Counted from the whole stretch's first letter, positions 1,160 through 52,088 are shown. The stretch is DNA of 63,369 nucleotides, filler included, from Stramenopiles sp. TOSAG23-2 (GCA_900128395.1; 30 parts of 30 records of this genome joined end to end with filler, not necessarily neighbours in it), one strand, 5' to 3'. Numbers and translations: made by a program. The notes: a model not told the origin generated them from the letters alone.

Positions 1160-1278
1160 ACCATTGAAAAGACAAATAAGACAAACCATCGTCCTGGACT
1201 AGTACGTATTGTGATTGGTTTATTATTGTTATCATGTTGATTTACAAGATGTTGATATTCATCTGTTGATATTTTCAT
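1160..1278 (-). CDS. 5' fragment of a probable MFS transporter (FLVCR/SLC49-like N-terminus)
   Basis: MKISTDEYQHLVNQHDNNNKPITIRTSPGRWFVLFVFSM runs off the contig; RWFVLFVFS resembles the TM1 start of FLVCR-like transporters. Not in the ORF track. Confidence 0.5.
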
Positions 1279-1820
1279 TGTTTGTTTTTTTTTTTTTATT
1301 ACAATTCAATAATCTTTTTTGTCTAATAACATAAATGTATATGATAATTTTCAGAGCTGTACATACACCGTATATAACAATAATTTATTTAACAGGACCA
1401 ATATTTAACAGATTTGTTTTATAAATATAATTGTGTGTGTATCGATCAGACTCTTTTTCTTTTCTCTATAAGCAAGCTCTTCTGCATGCAGAGCTCTGTG
1501 TCCTAATAGGCCTAAGAAGATTGGCCTTGATTGGATTAATAGATGTATATACATATATGGACATATGGACACGACATTGTGTGTGTTACAAAACAAAAAG
1601 AACATCGTACAGATCGATCGTCACATTCTGTTTGATTGGATATAGTAAGATAGATAGATACAATTATATACATACATATAATATAATATCGTAGTAGATA
1701 TATTTATTATTATTTTTTTGTCTCGTCGTATACGTAATAATAATTTAAATTTTGTAGAGAAAAGTTAGGATTTCACTACATTTTGATTCATACATAATAT
1801 ATAAGAAAACACGAAAGACG

Positions 1821-2218
1821 ATGAAAGTAAGTTGTTGGATCTACTTATTTACAATTGTAATTTTGCAAATATTAAATATTGTATTTAATAATTATATCCA
1901 TACAAACCTTTATTTATTATCCAAAACTAAAACAACATCATTATTACGTAGCAAACGAGAAGTTTTTGATGTAAAGAATAATAATATTGATTGCAATCAA
2001 CAAAATAACAACAAAAATAACAACGATGAAAGACAGTTAAATAAAATTAATGATAACGCTGCTGTTACTAATACTAATAAGATTAGTACAAAGATCAAAT
2101 CTGAAATACCACATGCAATAATACCAAGAAATAAACCACCAACATTGTTTTCAAATACAATAAGTAAAATAACATCAGTTTTAAGTAATGCTGGGGGTAC
2201 AAGTCACTATATGACTCA
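1821..2218 (+). CDS. 5' fragment of a type II membrane or secreted protein
   Basis: ATG, N-terminal hydrophobic segment, Asn-rich stem; truncated by the spacer; second copy at 11087. Confidence 0.6.
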
Positions 2219-5792: not shown

Positions 5793-5938
5793 AAATATTT
5801 CATCATTTTTTCTATATTTTCGGATATTTGCTATTTTTTACAAAAATTATATGAAAAATAAAATTGGCATTTTAGAAAACGATATATACATAAATATTTC
5901 CCATAGTGAATAGTGTTATTTGTTAAGTGTACAGTTTT
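5793..5938. mobile_element. Partial copy (interior plus right arm) of a dispersed foldback/MITE-like element
   Basis: Near-identical to 36598-36813, ending CCCATAGTGAATAGTGTTATTTGTTAAGTGTACAGTTTT. Confidence 0.75.
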
Positions 5939-6166
5939 CTCAGGGTTGTTCTCAAAAAAAAAAGCAGGTCCTTCCATAGCACCATATGAAGGAACACAAT
6001 GCCCATTTTTGTATTCGGTTCCTTGTCCACAACATTCACCCTGTTTACAAGTGCCTGGACTTGGCGATGGACCAGGTGCAGACGATGGTGGAAAGCCATT
6101 ACAAGCATTTTCTACTGTAATGTTAGCAGGGCATCCAAATTGCGCAAGTGCACCACTACAATATAT
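5939..6166 (-). pseudogene. Orphan fragment of a Cys-rich secreted-type protein abutting the element
   Basis: IYCSGALAQFGCPANITVENACNGFPPSSAPGPSPSPGTCKQGECCGQGTEYKNGHCVPSYGAMEG; in-frame TAA immediately upstream so no initiating ATG; frame runs into the element. Confidence 0.5.
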
Positions 6167-6952
6167 TTAATCTTTAATCTCTCGTAAAAATATTATCTTC
6201 AATACTCGATCCAAAAAAAAAAAAAAGTGGGGAATGAACAGTTTCTATTGGTTAATTAGATCAAGATCGTTATCAAAAAATTGAATTAATATATATCTAT
6301 CAATCTAATGTTCTAGAGATATTTGTTTTATACGTACAATTATCGTTAATATACAACATGTGAAATCCATTTGTATCAATATATATATATATACATCACA
6401 TGTTGAGATATATATATATACATCATGTATTTATATTGAGATGTGTCAGTTTGTTGTTACTTGTTTATTTTAGTATAGTTCTCGGCGGATTTCGGATTTC
6501 CACTATCAAATGACACTAATCTATACTTGAAATAGGGAAATTAGAATATCAGAAAAATAAATACTCCCGAATCCCGAATTCATAGAAATAGTACCTATGT
6601 GGCAAAATGACAAATGTACAAATATGTTACTTCCTTGTATTAGGATACTTATAAAAATGCTAAAAAAAATAATTAACGGACCACCTGGTTGACAGTGGTG
6701 TGCCCATGCTAGCGTGTTGCGAAGAATTGCGAATTTTGCGATTTGCTTTTTGGCTTTAGCTATATATCTAATATAGGACAAATATTACATATCGATATAT
6801 ATAATATTGATGTAGGATGTGTGTGTGTGTGTAAGTAGACAGGATAAAGCNNNNNNNNNNNNNNNNNNNNNNNNNNNNNNNNNNNNNNNNNNNNTTAATT
6901 AATTAANNNNNNNNNNNNNNNNNNNNNNNNNNNNNNNNNNNNNNNNNNNNGT

Positions 6953-10421: not shown

Positions 10422-10540
10422 ACCATTGAAAAGACAAATAAGACAAACCATCGTCCTGGACTAGTACGTATTGTGATTGGTTTATTATTGTTATCATGTT
10501 GATTTACAAGATGTTGATATTCATCTGTTGATATTTTCAT
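10422..10540 (-). CDS. 5' fragment of the MFS transporter (second copy)
   Basis: Identical to 1160-1278. Confidence 0.5.
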
Positions 10541-11086
10541 TGTTTGTTTTTTTTTTTTTATTACAATTCAATAATCTTTTTTGTCTAATAACATAAATGT
10601 ATATGATAATTTTCAGAGCTGTACATACACCGTATATAACAATAATTTATTTAACAGGACCAATATTTAACAGATTTGTTTTATAAATATAATTGTGTGT
10701 GTATCGATCAGACTCTTTTTCTTTTCTATAAGCTCTTCTGCAGAGAGCTCTGTGTCCTATAGGCCTAAGAAGATTGGCCTTGATTGGATTAATAATAGAT
10801 GTATGTATACATATATGGACATATGGGACACGCGACATTGTGTGTTTCCAAAAAAAAATAAAAAAGAACATCGTACAGATCGATCGTCACATTCTGTTTG
10901 ATTGGATATAGTAAGATAGATAGATACAATTATATACATACATATAATATAATATCGTAGTAGATATATTTATTATTATTTTTTTGTCTCGTCGTATACG
11001 TAATAATAATTTAAATTTTGTAGAGAAAAGTTAGGATTTCACTACATTTTGATTCATACATAATATATAAGAAAACACGAAAGACG

Positions 11087-11478
11087 ATGAAAGTAAGTTG
11101 TTGGATCTACTTATTTACAATTGTAATTTTGCAAATATTAAATATTGTATTTAATAATTATATCCATACAAACCTTTATTTATTATCCAAAACTAAAACA
11201 ACATCATTATTACGTAGCAAACGAGAAGTTTTTGATGTAAAGAATAATAATATTGATTGCAATCAACAAAATAACAACAAAAATAACAACGATGAAAGAC
11301 AGTTAAATAAAATTAATGATAACGCTGCTGTTACTAATACTAATAAGATTAGTACAAAGGTCAAATCTAAAATACCACATGCAATAATACCAAGAAATAA
11401 ACCACCAACATTGTTTTCAAATACAATAAGTAAAATAACATCAGTTTTAAGTAATGCTGGGGGTACAATCAATAATCA
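11087..11478 (+). CDS. 5' fragment of membrane-anchored protein (second copy; KVKSK versus KIKSE)
   Basis: Matches the 1821 ORF. Confidence 0.6.
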
Positions 11479-17359: not shown

Positions 17360-18244
17360 AAGAATGGTTTTGCACCTGCTGCAGCAGTAATTTTTTTAAC
17401 ATCAGCAGTTGGACCTGCCAAGATAGATGTACCGGAATCCAAGATAACTTTAGTTGTGGTGGTCATACTTGTACCTCCCAATTTAAGACCATCAAGTTTA
17501 GTTTCCCAGTAAGTATCACTAGTCAAATCAACATATGTCAAATCTCCAGTGTAATGATTTGGGTCGGTACCACCGAATGTCAATTCACCATCAGTACCAC
17601 TTGTAGTGGAAAGGGCAAAGCCGAATACTGGTTCAGAAACTGCTTTTTGGTCAACAGCATTGTGGAATACGGTTGTCAAGTTATCAACACTGATACTTTG
17701 GTATGCAAGACCTAAGATACCATCGAATTTACCGATGGAATATGCAAGGCCAAGACCTTTAGCATTATCGATCATAGCGAAATCTTGTGCGTTAACGGTN
17801 NNNNNNNNNNNNNNNNNNNNNNNNNCCTCCAACGGTTACATCGTCTTGTGCAACAATACCAGATACTGGACCACTTCCGTACATAATGTCGAAAATACGT
17901 CCATCTGCTTTGTATGTTTTTGATTTAGTTGGGTCATATTTTGGGTGGCTACCGCATGAACTGCAGTTTTCTGCTGGTACCCATAAGTTACTGGAACCAG
18001 TGTCGAAGATAACTTGGAATTGTTGTCCTCCAACACTTACTGGGCCGTAGTATTGCGCATCTTGGAAATTATGTAAAGGTACTGGGAAGTCACCTCTAAC
18101 TCCTTTCAAACCTTGTGGTACGTGGTAATCACCATGTTCATATGAAATTTGACGTAATGATTTAGATTTTTTTAATGGAATTCTAACCATAGCATTTGCT
18201 GAGCATAATGCTGCAATTAATAATACGATAGTTGCTACACGCAT
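17360..18244 (-). CDS. Cathepsin D-like A1 aspartic protease, 3'-truncated, internal N gap at 17800-17825
   Basis: Signal peptide, DAQYYG, VIFDTGSSNLWVP, FDGILGLAY, ILDSGTS (both catalytic Asp motifs). Confidence 0.95.
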
Positions 18245-19213
18245 GTTGTTGTATTGATATATTGTTTGTTATATATTTTGTATTTCAAATAATATTGTTT
18301 ATATATATATATATATATGTTTCCTATCTTTCCACTACTGATTGTAATTTTGTTTTCTATGTTGATGTACGAATATAAAATGTCTATTGTGGCTGTATTT
18401 TGCCCATTACACAGCNNNNNNNNNNNNNNNNNNNNNNNNNNNNNNNNNNNNNNNNNNNNTTAATTAATTAANNNNNNNNNNNNNNNNNNNNNNNNNNNNN
18501 NNNNNNNNNNNNNNNCTCGTCATCTTGTGCAAAATGTACAGATAAATGTGCCATATTCTTTGTTTTTAATGGTTTGAATATGTGATTTTTATTTGTATAT
18601 ATATATATGTATGTGTTTGTGTATTGATATCAATGATATCGATATATATATTGTATTTTCAAAAGTTACTATACCAGTCCATGCAGGTGCTCACCTGGCC
18701 CAACATCATGTAATTATTTCTTACTAACTGCTGTTTTTTGCAGCTATAATATTATACATATAATAGTAATAGTAATAGCATTAATACATGGGCATACCAC
18801 AGCAGAAATAAATCAAATATATTTTTTACAACTGGATGAACTCCTTTTAAAAATAGCGATGACGACAGGAACGTATAGACTATATAGTAGACGACTATAT
18901 CGTCAACCTTAACCTGGCCAGCCGGCAACCACAAACCACACTACATTATAACACCACATCATCCATCTCGTAATAATAGTAGTGTTGTTGTTATTGTACA
19001 TGATGTACTGTAGCTTATTACATATTCGTCTATAATTATATATATATATATATTAGAACACAAACATATTATATTTGTATTGATGTAATACAAGAAATCA
19101 ACAAACAAAACAGAAGAATCTATCTATACATAGATTATCCAACAAAAGTGTTATACAAAAAGCGATAAATAGACGTATATATACAAATGTATAAATAAAC
19201 GAAATAAATTTTC

Positions 19214-33131: not shown

Positions 33132-33353
33132 GGCTCTCGTTCGAGCATTTTCTGCTATTTCTTTTGCACGTGTTTTATATTTTTATTTTTTTATATTTTT
33201 AAGAGGTTTGTTACTCTTTTACTNNNNNNNNNNNNNNNNNNNNNNNNNNNNNNNNNNNNNNNNNNNNTTAATTAATTAANNNNNNNNNNNNNNNNNNNNN
33301 NNNNNNNNNNNNNNNNNNNNNNNCATATGTATACGCAATTAAATTAAGTAAAT

Positions 33354-34235
33354 ATGACATCCGTTGCAAATAATAATAACAAGGATGATGAAAGCAAAGG
33401 TGAAGACATTACGAATAACAATGTAGAAGTTATGGAATCTAATGTTATTCAAGAAATGAGTGAAATGAATATAATTATCAAAGATGATCCATCATTCATT
33501 GATATATTGCCAAGTGGTGGTGCTGGGCGGAATATTGTTTATACCATCCTTAGTATGTTAGATATGAAATCAGTAAGGTCATTGATCTATTCATCCTTTA
33601 TTCAATTATTTTGTAAAAATCGAAACGATGATACATTATATCAACTGTGTAAAGACATACAACATCAATTTAAAATACAATTGGCGAATGAATTAAAGAT
33701 TAAATACGAAGAAGAATTTCCAAACGGTACGCCAATAGTATGTGCATGTGAAAAAGGACGTTTTGAGGATGTGAAATTATTGATTACAGGTCATAATGAT
33801 GTGAATGGTAGTAATGGTAATAATAATAATAATATGACATTGAAAGAATACGTGAATCAAGTCGGTAAAGATAGGTGGGGTAATGGATGGACACCTTTAA
33901 CGATAGCTGCATGGAACGAACATTTCCAAATAATTAAATATTTGATTGAACAATGTGAAGCTGATCCTAATATTGCAAATAGTAATGGATCGAATGCATT
34001 ACATTTAGCAGCATATTATAACAAAAAGGATACGGAGTTGATTGAGTTCTTATTAACTAATATGTCTCTTAATAGCATTAATAAGAAGACGTCTGGGGGA
34101 GAAACTCCCCTGGACTTTGCATATGATCATAATAAAAGTCCAATTAAACAAAAGATCATTGATCTTATACGTTCAAAAGGTGGAAAACGTGAATATAGAT
34201 ATGATAGTGTGAACAAAAAATTATGCATAGTATGA
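33354..34235 (+). CDS. Ankyrin-repeat protein with F-box-like N-terminal motif
   Basis: GTPIVCACEKG, GWTPLTIAA, GSNALHLAA, GETPLDFA; DILPS...IVYTILSMLDMKSVRSL. Confidence 0.85.
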   Translation: MTSVANNNNKDDESKGEDITNNNVEVMESNVIQEMSEMNIIIKDDPSFIDILPSGGAGRNIVYTILSMLDMKSVRSLIYSSFIQLFCKNRNDDTLYQLCKDIQHQFKIQLANELKIKYEEEFPNGTPIVCACEKGRFEDVKLLITGHNDVNGSNGNNNNNMTLKEYVNQVGKDRWGNGWTPLTIAAWNEHFQIIKYLIEQCEADPNIANSNGSNALHLAAYYNKKDTELIEFLLTNMSLNSINKKTSGGETPLDFAYDHNKSPIKQKIIDLIRSKGGKREYRYDSVNKKLCIV

Positions 34236-34708
34236 TATACGATCGTAAAATTTTTAAATACGAACTTCGTACACAGTATATTATACATTATATCATACTC
34301 TTCGTGTATCATATTTTATACCGTATGTAATAATATAATATATATTTTATAAATATCATAAAATCTTGACACACACTGTTACTATAACACACATTTTGTC
34401 CTCTCTCTCTTTTACACGCGCGTATCAATCTCATCAATCTCTCTCTACTCACATACCAAAATAATATGATATATTTTAAAAAGAAGAGATATACAAACCG
34501 CGATTATTAAAACTTGCGCCTATAATAATCGTTTTGCTTTAAAATGTGCATTTGGTGAGTCGTATAATGATTTGTACCCTGGTACAATTTATTCTCCGCC
34601 TTCATATGATGTCCGTTTTCCATCAGCTATTATGAGTAGTTGATACTATCTATTTACCTTCATTGGTATTTTCGATTATGAGAATATCAACACACTATTC
34701 TTATTGAA

Positions 34709-34757
34709 GAGTAGGAATTATCATGAGTAAATTAAAAATAAATTATGCGTAAATTAA
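34709..34757 (-). repeat. 49-bp element identical in reverse complement to 44500-44548
   Basis: GAGTAGGAATTATCATGAGTAAATTAAAAATAAATTATGCGTAAATTAA. Confidence 0.9.
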
Positions 34758-34829
34758 TTATATTTTAAAATGAATATTTGAACACGTATCTCTCAAATTT
34801 TTATATATTTTAATATAAAATCAAAACAT

Positions 34830-35879
34830 TTATTCATCATCATCATCAGCTAATAAAGCAGCTGCTTTACGTGCAAATGCAGCTTTTTTTTGTGATACAC
34901 GTGCTTTACGTTGAGACAATGAAATCTTCGTGCGGTTTCTTTGGCCTGGTTTATCAGCCAATGATTTTGCACGTGCAGCATTTGGTTTTTTACTACCATC
35001 TGCATTGTACGTACGTGCTTTTACACTTTCAGCATTTTTTGGTGATGGATCAGCACGAATTGCTTTGTGTACAGCTAATAATGTATCTTGGTAATTCTCT
35101 GGACCTAAACCTTCTTTCACGTAGGATGAAAATAATTTACCAAAATTATTAGTACCTTCTTCTTCATCTTGTTCTTTGATGTGTTCCATGTATTCCGTAA
35201 CGCCACCTCCCAATAAACGTTCACGCATTGATTCAGCACTGTAGATCTTTTTATCACCATCATCCTCATCCATGTAAAAACGTTTTTCGTTATGTGGAAT
35301 ATCGATACCACCATCCACAGCACCTTTTAATGCAGCGAAGATTTTAGATCCACTAGTTGTTGGTTTTAAACCAACATCTAAGAATGCACGGAAGGGGCGA
35401 ACATCGTCATTCACTTCCTCAACGAAATGTTTACGTTTGGTTTCACTTAATGTTGCTTCATCAAAGGTAATTTCACCGGATACAGCTTCATCACCAGTGT
35501 ATAACTTTTCCAAAGAACGTTCATCTTCCACACCTTTACTTAATTTTGCTAATAAACGTCTTGCAACTAATAATCCAGTGCAATATGCTGCTGCATAATT
35601 TTTCAAACCACATTTCAAGCCATAACGTCCCAATTCACTGGAGTATGCACTTGCCAATACGCGGTCACAATCGATTTGACTGTACACGATTTGACAGATG
35701 CAATATCTATTCGTGAACCGTACTACTAAACGATATTTTGGGGTATTGTATTTTGCTTTATGTTGTACAATTAAACGTTTTCTAGCAAAATAATCCGTTT
35801 TCCCTTGTCTTCTACGACGATATTTTACTTGGTAACGTTTGAAATACGCTTTGTTTTTTTGTACTTTTACAAATGGCAT
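34830..35879 (-). CDS. RPL5: 60S ribosomal protein L5 (uL18), intronless
   Basis: MPFVKVQKNKAYFKRYQVKYRRRRQGKTDY...GLKNYAAAYCTGLLVARR...GAVDGGIDIPH. Confidence 0.98.
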   Translation of the reverse strand: MPFVKVQKNKAYFKRYQVKYRRRRQGKTDYFARKRLIVQHKAKYNTPKYRLVVRFTNRYCICQIVYSQIDCDRVLASAYSSELGRYGLKCGLKNYAAAYCTGLLVARRLLAKLSKGVEDERSLEKLYTGDEAVSGEITFDEATLSETKRKHFVEEVNDDVRPFRAFLDVGLKPTTSGSKIFAALKGAVDGGIDIPHNEKRFYMDEDDGDKKIYSAESMRERLLGGGVTEYMEHIKEQDEEEGTNNFGKLFSSYVKEGLGPENYQDTLLAVHKAIRADPSPKNAESVKARTYNADGSKKPNAARAKSLADKPGQRNRTKISLSQRKARVSQKKAAFARKAAALLADDDDE

Positions 35880-36036
35880 TGTGTTTGTTTTGTTTGTTTG
35901 TTTTTTAAATATATATATATTTGTTATTTATAATTTATATTGTTTTTAGTTTTGTTGTTATACATATTCATGTTATGTCTGTGTTGACGAAAGATGTGTA
36001 TTGAATATGTGTGGGTATGTATGATATTTTAATATA

Positions 36037-36260
36037 TATATATGTAAAATGACATTGATTTTATTTTTGTGTTGTCAATAGTGTGTCGTTATGTATTTGT
36101 ATAGATTGACATGGCAATTATCGCGATTAAACACGTATGGATGGAATTATTTATATATGTAAAATGACATTGATTTTGTTTACATAATACCAATAGTGTG
36201 TAGTTATATTATTGGTATCGATTGACATATCAACTATCTGGATTAAACAGGTATGGATAG
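36037..36260. repeat. Diverged ~115-bp tandem duplication upstream of RPL5
   Basis: TATGTAAAATGACATTGATTTT at 36041 and 36156; GATTAAACA.GTATGGAT at both unit ends. Confidence 0.85.
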
Positions 36261-36304
36261 AGGGAAACGTGCCGCAGCCATTCATTACGATGGTTTAATT
36301 GGTC

Positions 36305-36457
36305 AATGCTATGTCTATACTATTTCGTTTTCAATGCTGTGTGCCTCTATTAATTAGTATAATGCTATGTCTATACTATTTCATTTTCAATGCTGTGTGC
36401 CTCTATTAATTATTATAATGCTATGTCTATACTATTTCGTTTTCAATACTGTGTCGG
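36305..36457. repeat. 56-bp minisatellite, about 2.7 copies
   Basis: AATGCTATGTCTATACTATTTC at 36305, 36361 and 36417. Confidence 0.92.
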
Positions 36458-36563
36458 CGTACTTTTTTAATTTTTTATACGGAAGGCTATGCAGTAGTGC
36501 TACAGTATTAGTATACCCTCTAAATGGTCTACTAAAACATGCCAAAACTGTGCAAAACATGCC

Positions 36564-36813
36564 AAAACTGTGCACTTAACACTATTCACTATGGGGGAAA
36601 TATTCATCCTTTTTTCTATATTTTCGGATATTTGCTATTTTTTCCAAATATATGAAAAATAAAGTTGGCATTTTAGAAAACGATAAATACATATTTCCGT
36701 TGCTATTTTTTCCAAATATATGAAAAATAAAATTGGCATTTTAGAAAACGATAAATACATATTTCCACATATTTCCCATAGTGAATAGTGTTATTTGTTA
36801 AGTGTACAGTTTT
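36564..36813. mobile_element. Foldback/MITE-like element with terminal inverted repeats and an internal 68-bp duplication
   Basis: Perfect 19-bp IR TAACACTATTCACTATGGG (36577-95) / CCCATAGTGAATAGTGTTA (36775-93); outer 17-bp IR with one mismatch; second copy at 5793. Confidence 0.75.
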
Positions 36814-37102
36814 ATGATGTTTTAGAGGGTAGTAGCGTAGTAGCACTGCGAGCGCTGTGTTTCTGGATTTTATTCAAATCCAGAAAACCCTACTTAACAA
36901 CATTTTGATAGGAAAAAAGACTAGTGAGTAAACTTAATTAATCTTTACCTACCTGAAATTTAGGATGGACACAGCATTAAATAGCATAGATAGAGCATTA
37001 AANNNNNNNNNNNNNNNNNNNNNNNNNNNNNNNNNNNNNNNNNNNNTTAATTAATTAANNNNNNNNNNNNNNNNNNNNNNNNNNNNNNNNNNNNNNNNNN
37101 NN

Positions 37103-48418: not shown

Positions 48419-49232
48419 CAATGTAGAAAACGATTTGGATGTGATGATTTTGAGCGTGTACGTGATGAAGCATTGAGTATTGATTATGAAGGTAGAAGAA
48501 GTATAAATGAGATGAGACTTTCACATCCAGCGAGAAGACTTTATTTATTAATTGAAATCTTGTTTTCTTAATTTTAGTAAAAATTCAATTTTATATATAA
48601 ATATATATTTAAATGATATAAATGAGATGAGACTTTCACATCCAGCGAGAAGACTTTATTTATTAATTGAAACATATAAACGAGTGTTTCGGTGGGGTAC
48701 ACCTATCGTATGTGCATGTGAACGCGGGCGTGTGGATGATGTAGAATTATTTGTGAATCTTCATCCTTTTCACAAGTATATTACTAATCGTGATGCGAAT
48801 GGCTACCGAGATGCTATGACATTGAAAGAGATGGTGAGTCAAGTCGGTAAAGATAGTGTTGGTTATAGATATACACCTTTAACAGTAGCTGCAAGATTCG
48901 AACATTTCCATGTAATTAAATATTTAATTGAGCAAGGTGAAGCTGATCCTAATATTGCAGATAGTCATGGATATAATGCATTACATTTTGCAGCACAGTA
49001 TAACAGAAAGAATACTGAGTTGATTCAATTGTTGTTAACGCATATGACTCTTAATAGCATTAATAAGAAGCAGTCCACGGGAGGCACTCCCCTGGACTAT
49101 GCATATCGTAAAAATCATAGTCCAATTCGCCAAGAAATCATTGCACTTTTACGTTTAAAAGGTGGAAAAGCAAATTCTTATGATGAAAATGGTAATGAAG
49201 TAGGAGATGGTAATGGTGATTTAAACGATTGA
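48419..49232 (+). CDS. Ankyrin-repeat protein of the same family as 33354, 5'-truncated and disrupted at 48558-48672
   Basis: GTPIVCACERG...TLKEMVSQVGKD...EADPNIA...GTPLDYAY...KGGK; upstream frame QCRKRFG...LYLLIE is broken by an insertion plus duplication. Confidence 0.8.
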
Positions 49233-49376
49233 AAAACATTATTCGCGAAACGTGTTTATATTTTGCATAATAAAATACAAAACTTTGAACAGAAGAGAGA
49301 TTAAAACTATAATATTTTTACAAGTATCAATTGTTTGATATATTATCGCACCCTGATCTAGACTCTCATCAATCTA

Positions 49377-50210
49377 CTATTTCGATCCATCACCATCTTC
49401 CTTCATATGTTTTTGTAGAAACATTTCATGTGCTTCGTTCCATACTTTTGCAGTATCAGCATATTGTTTACGTTCTTTTATTTTCGATAAATCAATTTCA
49501 TTTAATTCATTTGTAAAACATTTATTCCACCATAAAATGATTGACATGCCACCTGGTATTGGTTTCTTCTTTAATTCTATTGCAATTGCTTTCCGTTCCA
49601 TTGGATCATTCACTATTTCAATGATTTCCCAATCAATATCATATTTATCCTCTGGTTCAACAATACTGTATACAAATTCACCTTCAATAAAGTAATCTTC
49701 ATCCTCGTTCGTGGTGTTCAGATTGGTTTTTAATTTGATTTTCAATGATTTTTCAAGTAATTCAATATCGACATGTTTCCCTTTCACATTAGATGGTATA
49801 AATATATGCAATGTAATTGTATCTTTCGTTTGCGACCATACATATTGATCATTAATCAACGCACCGTTTACTGCCCATAGTTTAAACTCTGGATCATATT
49901 TATCTTCTTCTTTTTCCTGCTTTTTATTGTCATTTCCAACTTGATTTGGTTTCGTATTGAATATTTTTTCATATGTTGGTGTGATTGTTACATTCTTAGG
50001 TATGTTTAACACATCACTATTACCACCAAATGTTATAGACGATGTTTCATTCAATTTCGTAATGTTCAACCCACTTTTACCTTTGACTGTACTTCCATAT
50101 TGATTTAAATTTTGATATGCTCTATTATTCTTATCGACATTAACATTATTATTATTACTTTCCTCATCACTATCAAAATTCATTTTATCCCATTTACTAT
50201 AATCAACCAT
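49377..50210 (-). CDS. NudC-like CS (p23/HSP20-like) domain protein
   Basis: YVWSQTKDTITLHIFIP...IEGEF...DWEI...IELKK...WWNKCF..EIDLSKI; N-terminal MVDYSKWD. Confidence 0.82.
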   Translation of the reverse strand: MVDYSKWDKMNFDSDEESNNNNVNVDKNNRAYQNLNQYGSTVKGKSGLNITKLNETSSITFGGNSDVLNIPKNVTITPTYEKIFNTKPNQVGNDNKKQEKEEDKYDPEFKLWAVNGALINDQYVWSQTKDTITLHIFIPSNVKGKHVDIELLEKSLKIKLKTNLNTTNEDEDYFIEGEFVYSIVEPEDKYDIDWEIIEIVNDPMERKAIAIELKKKPIPGGMSIILWWNKCFTNELNEIDLSKIKERKQYADTAKVWNEAHEMFLQKHMKEDGDGSK

Positions 50211-50217
50211 TTTTTTG

Positions 50218-50256
<39 letters not shown>

Positions 50257-50560
50257 GTACGGTGTACTTTTTCTTCGTTATTGTTGTTGATGGTTTAGTT
50301 ACTATTGCTCACCTAATTTTATGTTTGTTTTTTATTTTCTATATATTCATCGATCAACGATACATTAAATCACTTCTTCATTAATTTTATTATTATTCGT
50401 CGTATTGAATTGAATTGAATGAAAAGATTTTGTATTTATTATTATTGGCTTACAATTATAAATAAAGGTCTTCTATGTATATGTGTGAAAATATGATAGA
50501 ATGGAAAATACATTTGAAAAAAAACAAACGGACAAACATTATTGATAATCTAATAAAACA

Positions 50561-51832
50561 ATGGCATCGTTATTAAATGAAAATCAACCAACGGATCCAA
50601 TATCATTATTACCGTATAAAAAACCGACAAGAGTATTGCCATGTGGTCATACCTTTAATCACTCGTCGTTAGCTAGTTTACTTGATAATAATAATGGTGA
50701 TGCAACATTAGCATGTGATCCAATATCATTATTACCGTATAAAAAACCGACAAGAGTATTGCCATGTGGTCATACCTTTAATCACTCGTCGTTAGCTAGT
50801 TTACTTGATAATAATAATGGTGATGCAACATTAGCATGTCCTGTATGTAGAAAAAGAAGTCATGTTCGTGCTGTCAATGAGTATCCTAGGAATTATGGAA
50901 TGGAACAACAAATGGATTTTCAACAAGAAAAAGAAGATAAAATACGTAAAGAGAAAATGGATTTAGTTATCAAAATGAAAATTGAATCCAATAAAAAGTT
51001 GATGGATGTCTTAGTAAAAGCATATGGTGAAAACTCTAGTGAAGTTACAGATTGTATTATTGAACTAGGCAATTTGTATAGTGATATTGCTGAATATAAT
51101 AAAGCAATGAAATGTTATGAAGAAGCATTATCACGATATGAAAAATCGGATGATAAAATTGCAGATGTCGCAAGAACATATTGTAAGGTTGGTAAAATAT
51201 ATGAAAAGCAAAGTGAATATGATAAATCGATGGAATATTTCGAAAAAGCATTACCAATGCAAGTGAAAAAATTTGGTACGGAGGAACATGTAGATGTTGG
51301 AAAGACATATGAATTGATGGGATGGACATGTAGTCAGTTGCGAAAAGATGATCTAGCAATGGAATATTGTATGAAAAGTTTAAAAATACGTTTGAAAGTA
51401 TTGGAGGAAGATCATGTGGATTTTGGTGATTCATATCATAAAATTGGATGGGTTTATTATTGTAAAGCTGAATATGATAAAGCATTAGAATATTATAATA
51501 AATCATTAGATATTCGTATAAATAAATTAGGCAAAGATCATACTGATGTTGCAGATTCATATAATAATATAGCAATAGTTTATATTTCACAAAATAAATA
51601 TGATGAAGCATTAGAATATTATAATAAATCATTAGATATTAAAATAAATAAATTAGGTAAAGATCATACTAGTGTTGCAACATCATATTATAACATTGGT
51701 AACTTATATGAAAATCAATCCAAATACAAAGAAGCATTAGAATGTTACAACAAGTCTTACAATATATGGAAAGATAAATTTGGTGATGATCATCAATATA
51801 CAAAATTTGCAGTACAACAAATACAAAATTGA
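50561..51832 (+). CDS. U-box/RING-like domain plus 42-aa TPR repeats (kinesin-light-chain / nephrocystin-3 type)
   Basis: DPIS...LPCGHTF...CPVCR; repeats of VAxSYNNIAxVY..QNKYDEALEYYNKSLDIxINKLGKDH. Confidence 0.88.
   Translation: MASLLNENQPTDPISLLPYKKPTRVLPCGHTFNHSSLASLLDNNNGDATLACDPISLLPYKKPTRVLPCGHTFNHSSLASLLDNNNGDATLACPVCRKRSHVRAVNEYPRNYGMEQQMDFQQEKEDKIRKEKMDLVIKMKIESNKKLMDVLVKAYGENSSEVTDCIIELGNLYSDIAEYNKAMKCYEEALSRYEKSDDKIADVARTYCKVGKIYEKQSEYDKSMEYFEKALPMQVKKFGTEEHVDVGKTYELMGWTCSQLRKDDLAMEYCMKSLKIRLKVLEEDHVDFGDSYHKIGWVYYCKAEYDKALEYYNKSLDIRINKLGKDHTDVADSYNNIAIVYISQNKYDEALEYYNKSLDIKINKLGKDHTSVATSYYNIGNLYENQSKYKEALECYNKSYNIWKDKFGDDHQYTKFAVQQIQN
50594..50839. repeat. Exact 123-bp tandem duplication
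   Basis: GATCCAATATCATT starts at 50594 and 50717. Confidence 0.95.
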
Positions 51833-52088
51833 ATGTTGCAGGATCATATAATAATATAGCAAATGTTTATCAATCACAAAATAAATATGATGAAGCATTA
51901 GAATATTATAATAAATCATTAGATATTTATATAAATAAATTAGGTAAAGATCATACTTATGTTGCAACATCATATAATAATATAGCATGTGTTTATGAAA
52001 AACAAAATAAATATGATGAAGCATTAGAATATCATAATAAATCATTAGATATTAATATAAATAAATTAGGTAAAGATCATACTAATGT
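51832..52088 (+). pseudogene. Further TPR units in another frame directly after the stop (chimera, misassembly or tandem fragment)
   Basis: NVAGSYNNIANVYQSQNKYDEALEYYNKSL... with no ATG. Confidence 0.55.

Follow-up and report, generated by a model that had tools for sequence, protein, structure and literature searches.

Why do two contigs of one assembly agree base for base over long stretches and then differ at a dozen sites between two divergent start codons? The preliminary description of this DNA saw in the cluster the trace of staggered breaks at promoter centres; whether it records such a process, inherited haplotypes or the assembly itself is the question followed here. The DNA analyzed (63,369 bases at its full length, hereafter the window) consists of 30 separate contigs with N/TTAATTAATTAA spacers between them, 19 of 1055-1059 bp and 11 of 3657-3683 bp, with a GC content of 21-40%. 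Eukaryotic proteins (gamma-tubulin complex component, PHAF1, SURF6, 3-beta-HSD, TPR/RING) are encoded in long frames with few introns; for lineage, a protein-atlas comparison returned nothing beyond generic eukaryotic clusters of PHAF1. Words of the window recur in 20 public runs (11 studies), the majority of them marine or seawater metagenomes. An all-against-all blastn comparison of the 30 contigs returned a single full-length pair, c2 and c10, with 97.07% identity over 1057 columns, the remaining matches being short repeats. The two contigs of this pair are collinear over their whole length, highly similar and mutually unique, as haplotigs are. The features that the comparison first requires are as follows.

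1160-2218, no strand assigned: contig c2, haplotype 1; c10 is its sole full-length partner, and its core alleles are also found in the run X2 contig.
10422-11478, no strand assigned: contig c10, haplotype 2 of the same locus; 97% identity to c2 and a first base in common with it.
1463-1594, no strand assigned: core of c2, rich in indels; it differs from c10 by 10 indels and 2 substitutions.
10725-10865, no strand assigned: corresponding core in c10; alleles of L001/X5/X8 plus four private changes.
2094-2103, no strand assigned: two substitutions outside the core; 2094G is also found in X5 and X8.
2203-2218, no strand assigned: the final 16 nt of c2; neither c10 nor the sequence that follows 2202 in X2, X5 and X8 agrees with them.

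Among the other contigs, c23 (33324-37002) and c27 (48419-52088) share 355 bp at 82% identity without gaps, which is probably paralogous coding sequence. Contig c23 also has a ~100-bp repeat (90-92%) in common with the start of c6 (5793-6850) and shares 74 bp with the end of c25. Contig c16 (17360-18415) holds 26 internal N, the sole internal gap among the 30 contigs.

Contigs c2 and c10 are identical over 1160-1462 and again over 1595-2093, and 12 events separate them in between: 10 indels of 1-6 nt and 2 substitutions. Outside this core lie the SNPs at 2094 and 2103, and the ends are unlike after 2202. Twelve of the 14 events thus fall within 132 of 1043 alignable bases (binomial P=1.2e-9); for the 542 bp of intergenic DNA, all 12 events are inside the same 132 bp (P=4e-8). 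This bears out the preliminary description, which had reported contigs that match on both sides of one dense cluster of ~150 bp, with the longer form in either copy (c2 is longer six times, c10 five times), and every allele pair that it listed is present in the alignment. It had also called most of the differences tandem duplications of 1-4 nt; exact tandem copies account for six of the 10 indels (TC, AAGC, A, TAA, G, CG), and the other four are of a different kind (two at the TGCATGCA centre, one TG, one G/poly-A block).

We compared six haplotypes of the locus, all of them assembled contigs from possibly mixed samples, in which phase is guaranteed only within about one k-mer. Besides c2 and c10 these are L001, a metagenome contig covering 1160-1777, and X2, X5 and X8, Logan contigs from runs of three different studies, each spanning 1160-2202. 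The variants listed for X8 comprise 10 of 12 substitutions and 18 of 29 gap letters. Searches for further haplotypes gave no match in genome contigs or viral contigs and one, L001, in metagenome contigs, and run X1 (0.82 of the window's words) yielded only two chance matches to c2, of 21 and 18 nt.

The variant cluster lies between divergent ATGs, on the minus strand at 1278 and on the plus strand at 1821, which leave 542 bp of intergenic DNA. The following features define the locus.

1160-1278, minus strand: exon 1 of a gene for an MFS transporter, its ATG at 1278, from the translation; no variant is listed in any haplotype.
1394-1398, no strand assigned: second small variable site, adjoining a CCAAT box; an indel in X8 and X2, a substitution in L001.
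1481-1498, no strand assigned: in c2, a 12-nt and a 10-nt perfect palindrome that overlap; three forms of the centre occur among the haplotypes.
1507-1536, no strand assigned: indel-free block within the hotspot, with two ATTGG (reverse CCAAT) at 1520 and 1530; the sole variant is A1514T in L001.
1821-2202, plus strand: start of an open frame, 127 codons until the contig ends diverge; hydrophobic N-terminus.

L001 continues the minus-strand gene across two short introns, and the gene matches Pfam MFS_1 (E=8e-19). The introns of this gene are ~110-200 bp long and start with GTAAGT; a (GA)n microsatellite of ~40 nt lies within a short one (L001 1075-1114). No Pfam family matched the plus-strand frame at 1821-2202. 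Its variants (1841-2128) are substitutions only, and neither coding part contains an indel across the haplotypes' listed variants. The core is the GC-richest intergenic part, at 34-37% vs 18-25% in the flanks. An Rfam search of 1160-2218 on both strands (E<=1) gave no match and hence no RNA gene or structured element. Four CCAAT/ATTGG motifs fall in the intergenic region vs ~1.5 expected from the window's rate, an excess that is suggestive. At 1394, X8 carries a 4-nt insertion (GGAC) that is an exact tandem copy, the X2 version differs from it by one base, and C1398G in L001 destroys the CCAAT.

Most of the variants between c2 and c10 are natural and not sequencing errors. Alleles at 1466, 1474, 1485, 1505 and 1594 recur among the X2, X5, X8 and L001 contigs, with the core of X2 being exactly that of c2. 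A 1-base loss at 1505 and the poly-A block at 1594 are found together in c10, X5, X8 and L001, and a 2-nt loss at 1466 with a 4-nt loss at 1474 in c10, X5 and L001. At the palindrome centre, X5, X8 and L001 have an allele of their own, one base missing at 1485, and c10 has a shorter centre and an extra AG. In X8, TA has been gained at 1466 and (GT) lost at 1578, which brings the (TC)(TA) and (GT) sites, like the palindrome centre, to three alleles. In all, eight of the 12 differences are confirmed outside this assembly. The remaining four (+TAA, +TG, +CG and the changed palindrome centre) are private to c10, being absent from L001, X2 and X5 and not among the X8 variants listed, so that the reality of the differences is established in independent data for the eight and is without independent support for the four. 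The small variants recur across samples spanning 2013 to 2024, from different studies.

The same haplotypes bear on the sharp edges of the cluster. The flanks pair c2 with c10, whose alleles at 1378, 1777 and 2128 are missing from all other covering haplotypes; the core pairs c2 with X2, and c10 with L001 and X5. Between c2 and c10 there are 12 differences in the core and none in the flanks, whereas between c2 and X2 there are none in the core and seven in the non-coding flanks (Fisher P=2e-5). X2 equals c2 over 1398-1700 (P=0.003 or less) and departs from it at 1378, 1397, 1701, 1727, 1735, 1769 and 1777. Because the groupings of core and flanks conflict, c10 is a mosaic, with the core of another haplogroup set in c2-like flanks; separate origins of identical complex alleles (A1588C together with the poly-A block) are very unlikely. 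The edges of the c10 tract fall within 1379-1463 and 1595-1700, which gives a tract of 132 to ~320 bp, and either recombination or a short gene-conversion event may have made the mosaic, or assemblers may have switched between haplotypes. Since the core alleles of c10 are largely those of another haplogroup, the sharp localization is not a local mutation burst.

A local excess of short indels at this one bidirectional promoter core is nevertheless real and independently replicated. Counting distinct events by hand over all six sequences, we obtained ~14 indels and 3 substitutions for the core (143 bp); for the non-coding flanks (399 bp) the count is 12 substitutions and 4 listed indels, or at most 8 when all unlisted X8 rows are assigned there (Fisher P=0.0016 for indels versus substitutions in core versus flank, 0.018 under that worst-case assignment). 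Per base, the core exceeds the flanks 5-10 fold in indels, with substitutions at 0.021 per base in the core vs 0.030 in the flanks. Individual comparisons behave alike: between X5 and c2 the core holds 6/6 indels and 1/11 substitutions (Fisher P=0.0006; P=0.015 for non-coding DNA only), and between c2 and L001 over 1279-1776 it holds 7/9 indels (P=0.002) and 3/9 substitutions (P=0.44). With more haplotypes, substitutions spread along the whole locus (1329-2128), whereas indels remain clustered. The excess points to an indel-specific factor, be it mutability or tolerance. Positions within short tandem repeats make up 63% of the core and 69-73% of the flanks, with 11.2 repeat runs per 100 bp in the core and 8.8-11.5 in the flanks; as the core is no richer in such repeats than its surroundings, repeat content alone does not place the hotspot. 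Thus, of the sharply localized hotspot claimed at the outset, an indel-rich core remains over six haplotypes, and its sharp edges come from mosaic ancestry or assembly.

On balance, we think it probable that c2 and c10 are uncollapsed allelic or population versions of one locus, with an indel-prone promoter core and a separate mosaic effect. The contigs are ordinary allelic contigs, and the enrichment of indels in the promoter is of an already known kind. The two versions would have remained uncollapsed in the fragmented assembly of a wild marine protist, and the locus would be a 542-bp bidirectional promoter serving the MFS transporter gene and the gene for the protein with the hydrophobic N-terminus. 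The central ~140 bp, richer in GC and presumed to be the open core of the promoter, would gain short indels ~5-10 times faster per base than the AT-rich flanks, or tolerate them better. These indels would be gains or losses of 1-4-nt units, length changes in (TC)(TA), (GT) and poly-A runs, and changes at the palindrome centre, with the short (TC)(TA), (GT) and poly-A runs each at three alleles; replication slippage, micro-duplication and hairpin instability would be their likely sources. The foreign core of c10 would have arrived through population recombination or short-tract conversion, or through an assembler threading an unpopped bubble through common flanks. Like the haplotigs of heterozygous or pooled wild samples, c2 and c10 represent one locus with a common first base and identical flanks, and they differ where closely packed variants of unequal length prevent merging. 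Near-duplicate contigs are a normal product of assembling wild, polymorphic microbes and matter little in themselves; indel-rich promoter cores and tandem-copy indels are already known from animals and yeast.

Messer and Arndt reportedly described, in 2007, indels from short tandem duplication and slippage as the main class of small indels. Here the gain or loss of a tandem unit describes 6/10 of the c2/c10 indels as well as the losses in the flanks, which fall within existing repeats (two from a T13 run, five at ATATA, three at 1735). Higher repeat content does not mark the hotspot, and AAGC, CG and TAA (c2/c10) and GGAC at 1394 (X8) are units duplicated in unrepeated sequence; the AAGC, CG and GGAC copies, lacking a prior repeat, are not predicted by classic microsatellite slippage. 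The duplication units (AAGC and GGAC of 4 nt, TAA of 3, TC, CG and TA of 2, A and G of 1) are tiny in number, and the size spectrum of these few duplications at this locus has no mode at 4 nt. Polarized by minor allele, without an outgroup, the core shows ~5 insertions to 2 deletions and the flanks 1 to 3, a difference that is not significant (P=0.24).

Tandem duplications account for 80-90% of short insertions in flies and primates (Tanay & Siggia 2008, PMC2374710), and in humans about three quarters of indels come from slippage, with insertions tied to pseudo-palindromes (Montgomery et al. 2013, PMC3638132). As far as these sources describe such indels, ours resemble them in the tandem copies, the multi-allelic repeats and the indel at a palindrome centre, and depart from them in density (~14 events per 143 bp in six haplotypes) and in a core no more repetitive than its flanks. 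In medaka, indel and substitution profiles differ around gene starts (Sasaki et al. 2009, cited in PMC4653950). On that citing account the likeness lies in the separate profiles that indels and substitutions follow; our case, however, is a single locus, with a core between divergent genes and not downstream of a start site. In humans, germline transcription-factor sites carry an excess of short insertions (Kaiser et al. 2021, PMC8559717). In what that report sets out, the insertions likewise fall in regulatory DNA near motifs, as ours do beside the CCAAT/ATTGG at 1398, 1520 and 1530; but they measure at least 5 bp and often duplicate the motif, whereas ours are 1-6-nt indels and the motif block at 1507-1536 is indel-free.

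Several indels had been said to sit on 4-bp palindromes, but the association is at chance level, such palindromes covering 34% of the hotspot vs 32-34% of the flanks, with 5/10 indel segments touching one. Perfect 12-nt palindromes number two in the 132-bp core of c2 vs 0.08 expected (rate, 35 per 60.8 kb), and both are altered in c10.

Could the assembly have produced the pattern? There is a small but appreciable chance that the changes private to c10 and the identity of the flanks arose in amplification, sequencing or assembly, leaving two or three true alleles of the core. The four private changes are missing from L001, X2 and X5 and not among the listed X8 variants, and run X1, with 82% of the window's words, gave no usable contig. 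Contigs c2 and c10 begin at one base, and L001 runs through upstream of it unbroken; the common first base looks like two paths in one assembly graph. The last 16 nt of c2, unsupported in the other data sets, are probably an assembly tip, chimeric or erroneous, and because both c10 and three independent contigs contradict this tip, end artefacts do occur in the assembly. The c10 3' end is the continuation found in X2, X5 and X8. Set against this, eight of the 12 differences are confirmed independently, so the hotspot stands without the c10-private changes; the SNP pair 2094/2103 survived, so simple differences were not erased in assembly; and errors are unlikely to appear as clean tandem copies confined to 75 bp in mid-contig. 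The converse arrangement, in which the end of c10 would be that of c2 with deletions from read-end errors, was rejected on the three independent contigs that continue exactly like c10.

The preliminary description proposed that staggered breaks at promoter centres (Top2 with a 4-nt overhang, Spo11 with a 2-nt overhang) are filled in and joined to leave duplications of 1-4 nt, in a lineage-wide focus on promoters. The premise concerning Top2 is right, as trapped Top2 followed by end joining gives duplications of 1-4 bp, 4 bp being commonest, and the relevant part of that preprint reports Top2 mutators with duplications up ~80-fold and substitutions not raised (bioRxiv 10.1101/2020.05.03.075358). 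In humans, the TOP2A-K743N duplications (signature ID17) increase with transcription (PMC8795545). The duplications known from yeast top2-F1025Y,R1128G and human TOP2A K743N (ID17), as those sources present them, resemble ours in being of 1-4 bp in unique sequence, in leaving substitutions unraised and in their link to transcribed DNA. The observations at our locus are compatible with such a process. Here, too, substitutions do not rise (3 per 143 bp of core vs 12 per 399 bp of flanks), so that the core combines an indel excess with no substitution excess; exact duplications stand in unrepeated sequence (AAGC, CG, TAA; GGAC at 1394 in X8), the repeat content of the core is not above that of the flanks, and minor alleles of the core lean to insertions (~5 to 2 by hand tally).

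Several observations make this mechanism unlikely here nonetheless. Unlike the Top2 and ID17 signature as described in those sources, with its mode at 4 bp, 4-nt units supply only two of ~8 exact tandem copies, and many events fall in existing repeats: at least four are length changes in multi-allelic (TC)(TA), (GT), GG and poly-A runs, for which slippage suffices. The lean to insertions does not reach significance (P=0.24), the association with 4-bp palindromes is at chance, and the window's non-coding two-copy repeats have no excess specific to 4 nt. Most c2/c10 differences are inherited haplogroup alleles and not new, and the window offers a single locus and a single allelic pair.

A related and likewise doubtful reading takes the core as a site at which meiotic recombination starts, where conversion tracts of ~130-300 bp, error-prone repair and GC-biased conversion would give rise to both the indels and the GC content. 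Promoter-centred hotspots of meiotic breaks are established in yeast and plants. Two independent ancestry switches (c10 and X2) have their edges at like places, ~1398-1463 and 1595-1700, and the GC content of the core (34-37% vs 18-25%) agrees with such a site. However, bubble popping in assembled, possibly mixed samples can mimic conversion tracts, transcription-factor sites also make promoter cores GC-richer, there is no evidence of meiosis in this organism, and in the part of PMC3638132 that bears on the matter, human recombination hotspots are not enriched in indels.

A bolder proposition, to which we assign little probability, is that the centre of this promoter is a programmed or transcription-linked break site, where repair moves the ~130-300-bp core from one haplotype to another in short conversion tracts and, through fill-in and end joining, leaves de novo duplications of 1-4 nt. 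If it were true, promoter cores in this lineage would evolve mainly by micro-duplication, and should it hold genome-wide, ocean metagenomes would offer a direct view of a counterpart, in natural populations, to the Top2/ID17-type signature.

Balancing selection, which would keep two old promoter alleles and make coalescence in the core deeper than in the flanks, is very improbable. The core haplogroups are indeed discrete (c2/X2, L001/X5/X8 and c10) and were found from 2013 to 2024 in different studies, but the substitution density of the core (3 per 143 bp) is not above that of the flanks (12 per 399 bp), which argues against a deeper genealogy and hence against such selection. That one or a few template switches at quasi-palindromes made several neighbouring changes together, as has been described for mutation clusters in humans (PMC5453318), is hardly credible, since the changes are spread across 130 bp, although both of the perfect 12-nt palindromes in the c2 core (0.08 expected) are changed in c10. 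A scan of all ordered pairs of c2, c10 and L001 for novel words of 9-16 nt with a reverse-complement source in the partner haplotype found one self-complementary word and no copy of switch type.

For the reading that we prefer, uncollapsed versions of a locus with an indel-prone promoter core, the interest lies in what the data sets make accessible. Because the variants recur in ocean samples from 2013-2024, public metagenomes give access to the population genetics of an uncultured protist at the resolution of a single promoter. The contrast at this locus is clean (5-10 fold more indels, with no extra substitutions or repeats), so that testing genome-wide where short indels arise, be it by slippage, break repair or conversion, would cost little and tell much about a lineage that cannot be cultivated.

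Two further observations concern the repeats and motifs of the window. In 22 kb of non-ORF DNA, where non-coding means outside stop-to-stop frames of at least 120 codons and takes in introns and small exons, two-copy repeats have no 4-nt-specific excess (4 nt, 1.27x; 3 nt, 1.36x; 5 nt, 1.24x). Two-copy units of 3 nt and 6 nt exceed dinucleotide shuffles by 1.38x and 2.64x inside long frames and by 1.36x and 1.91x outside them, and inside frames the 2-nt and 4-nt units are depleted (0.88x and 0.81x). ATCGAT palindromes at 1441-1446 and 1613-1618 flank the core, with every c2/c10 core difference falling between them; the window as a whole holds 29 ATCGAT vs 19.9 expected, a count reached by 4/100 shuffles, and is thus weakly enriched in the motif.
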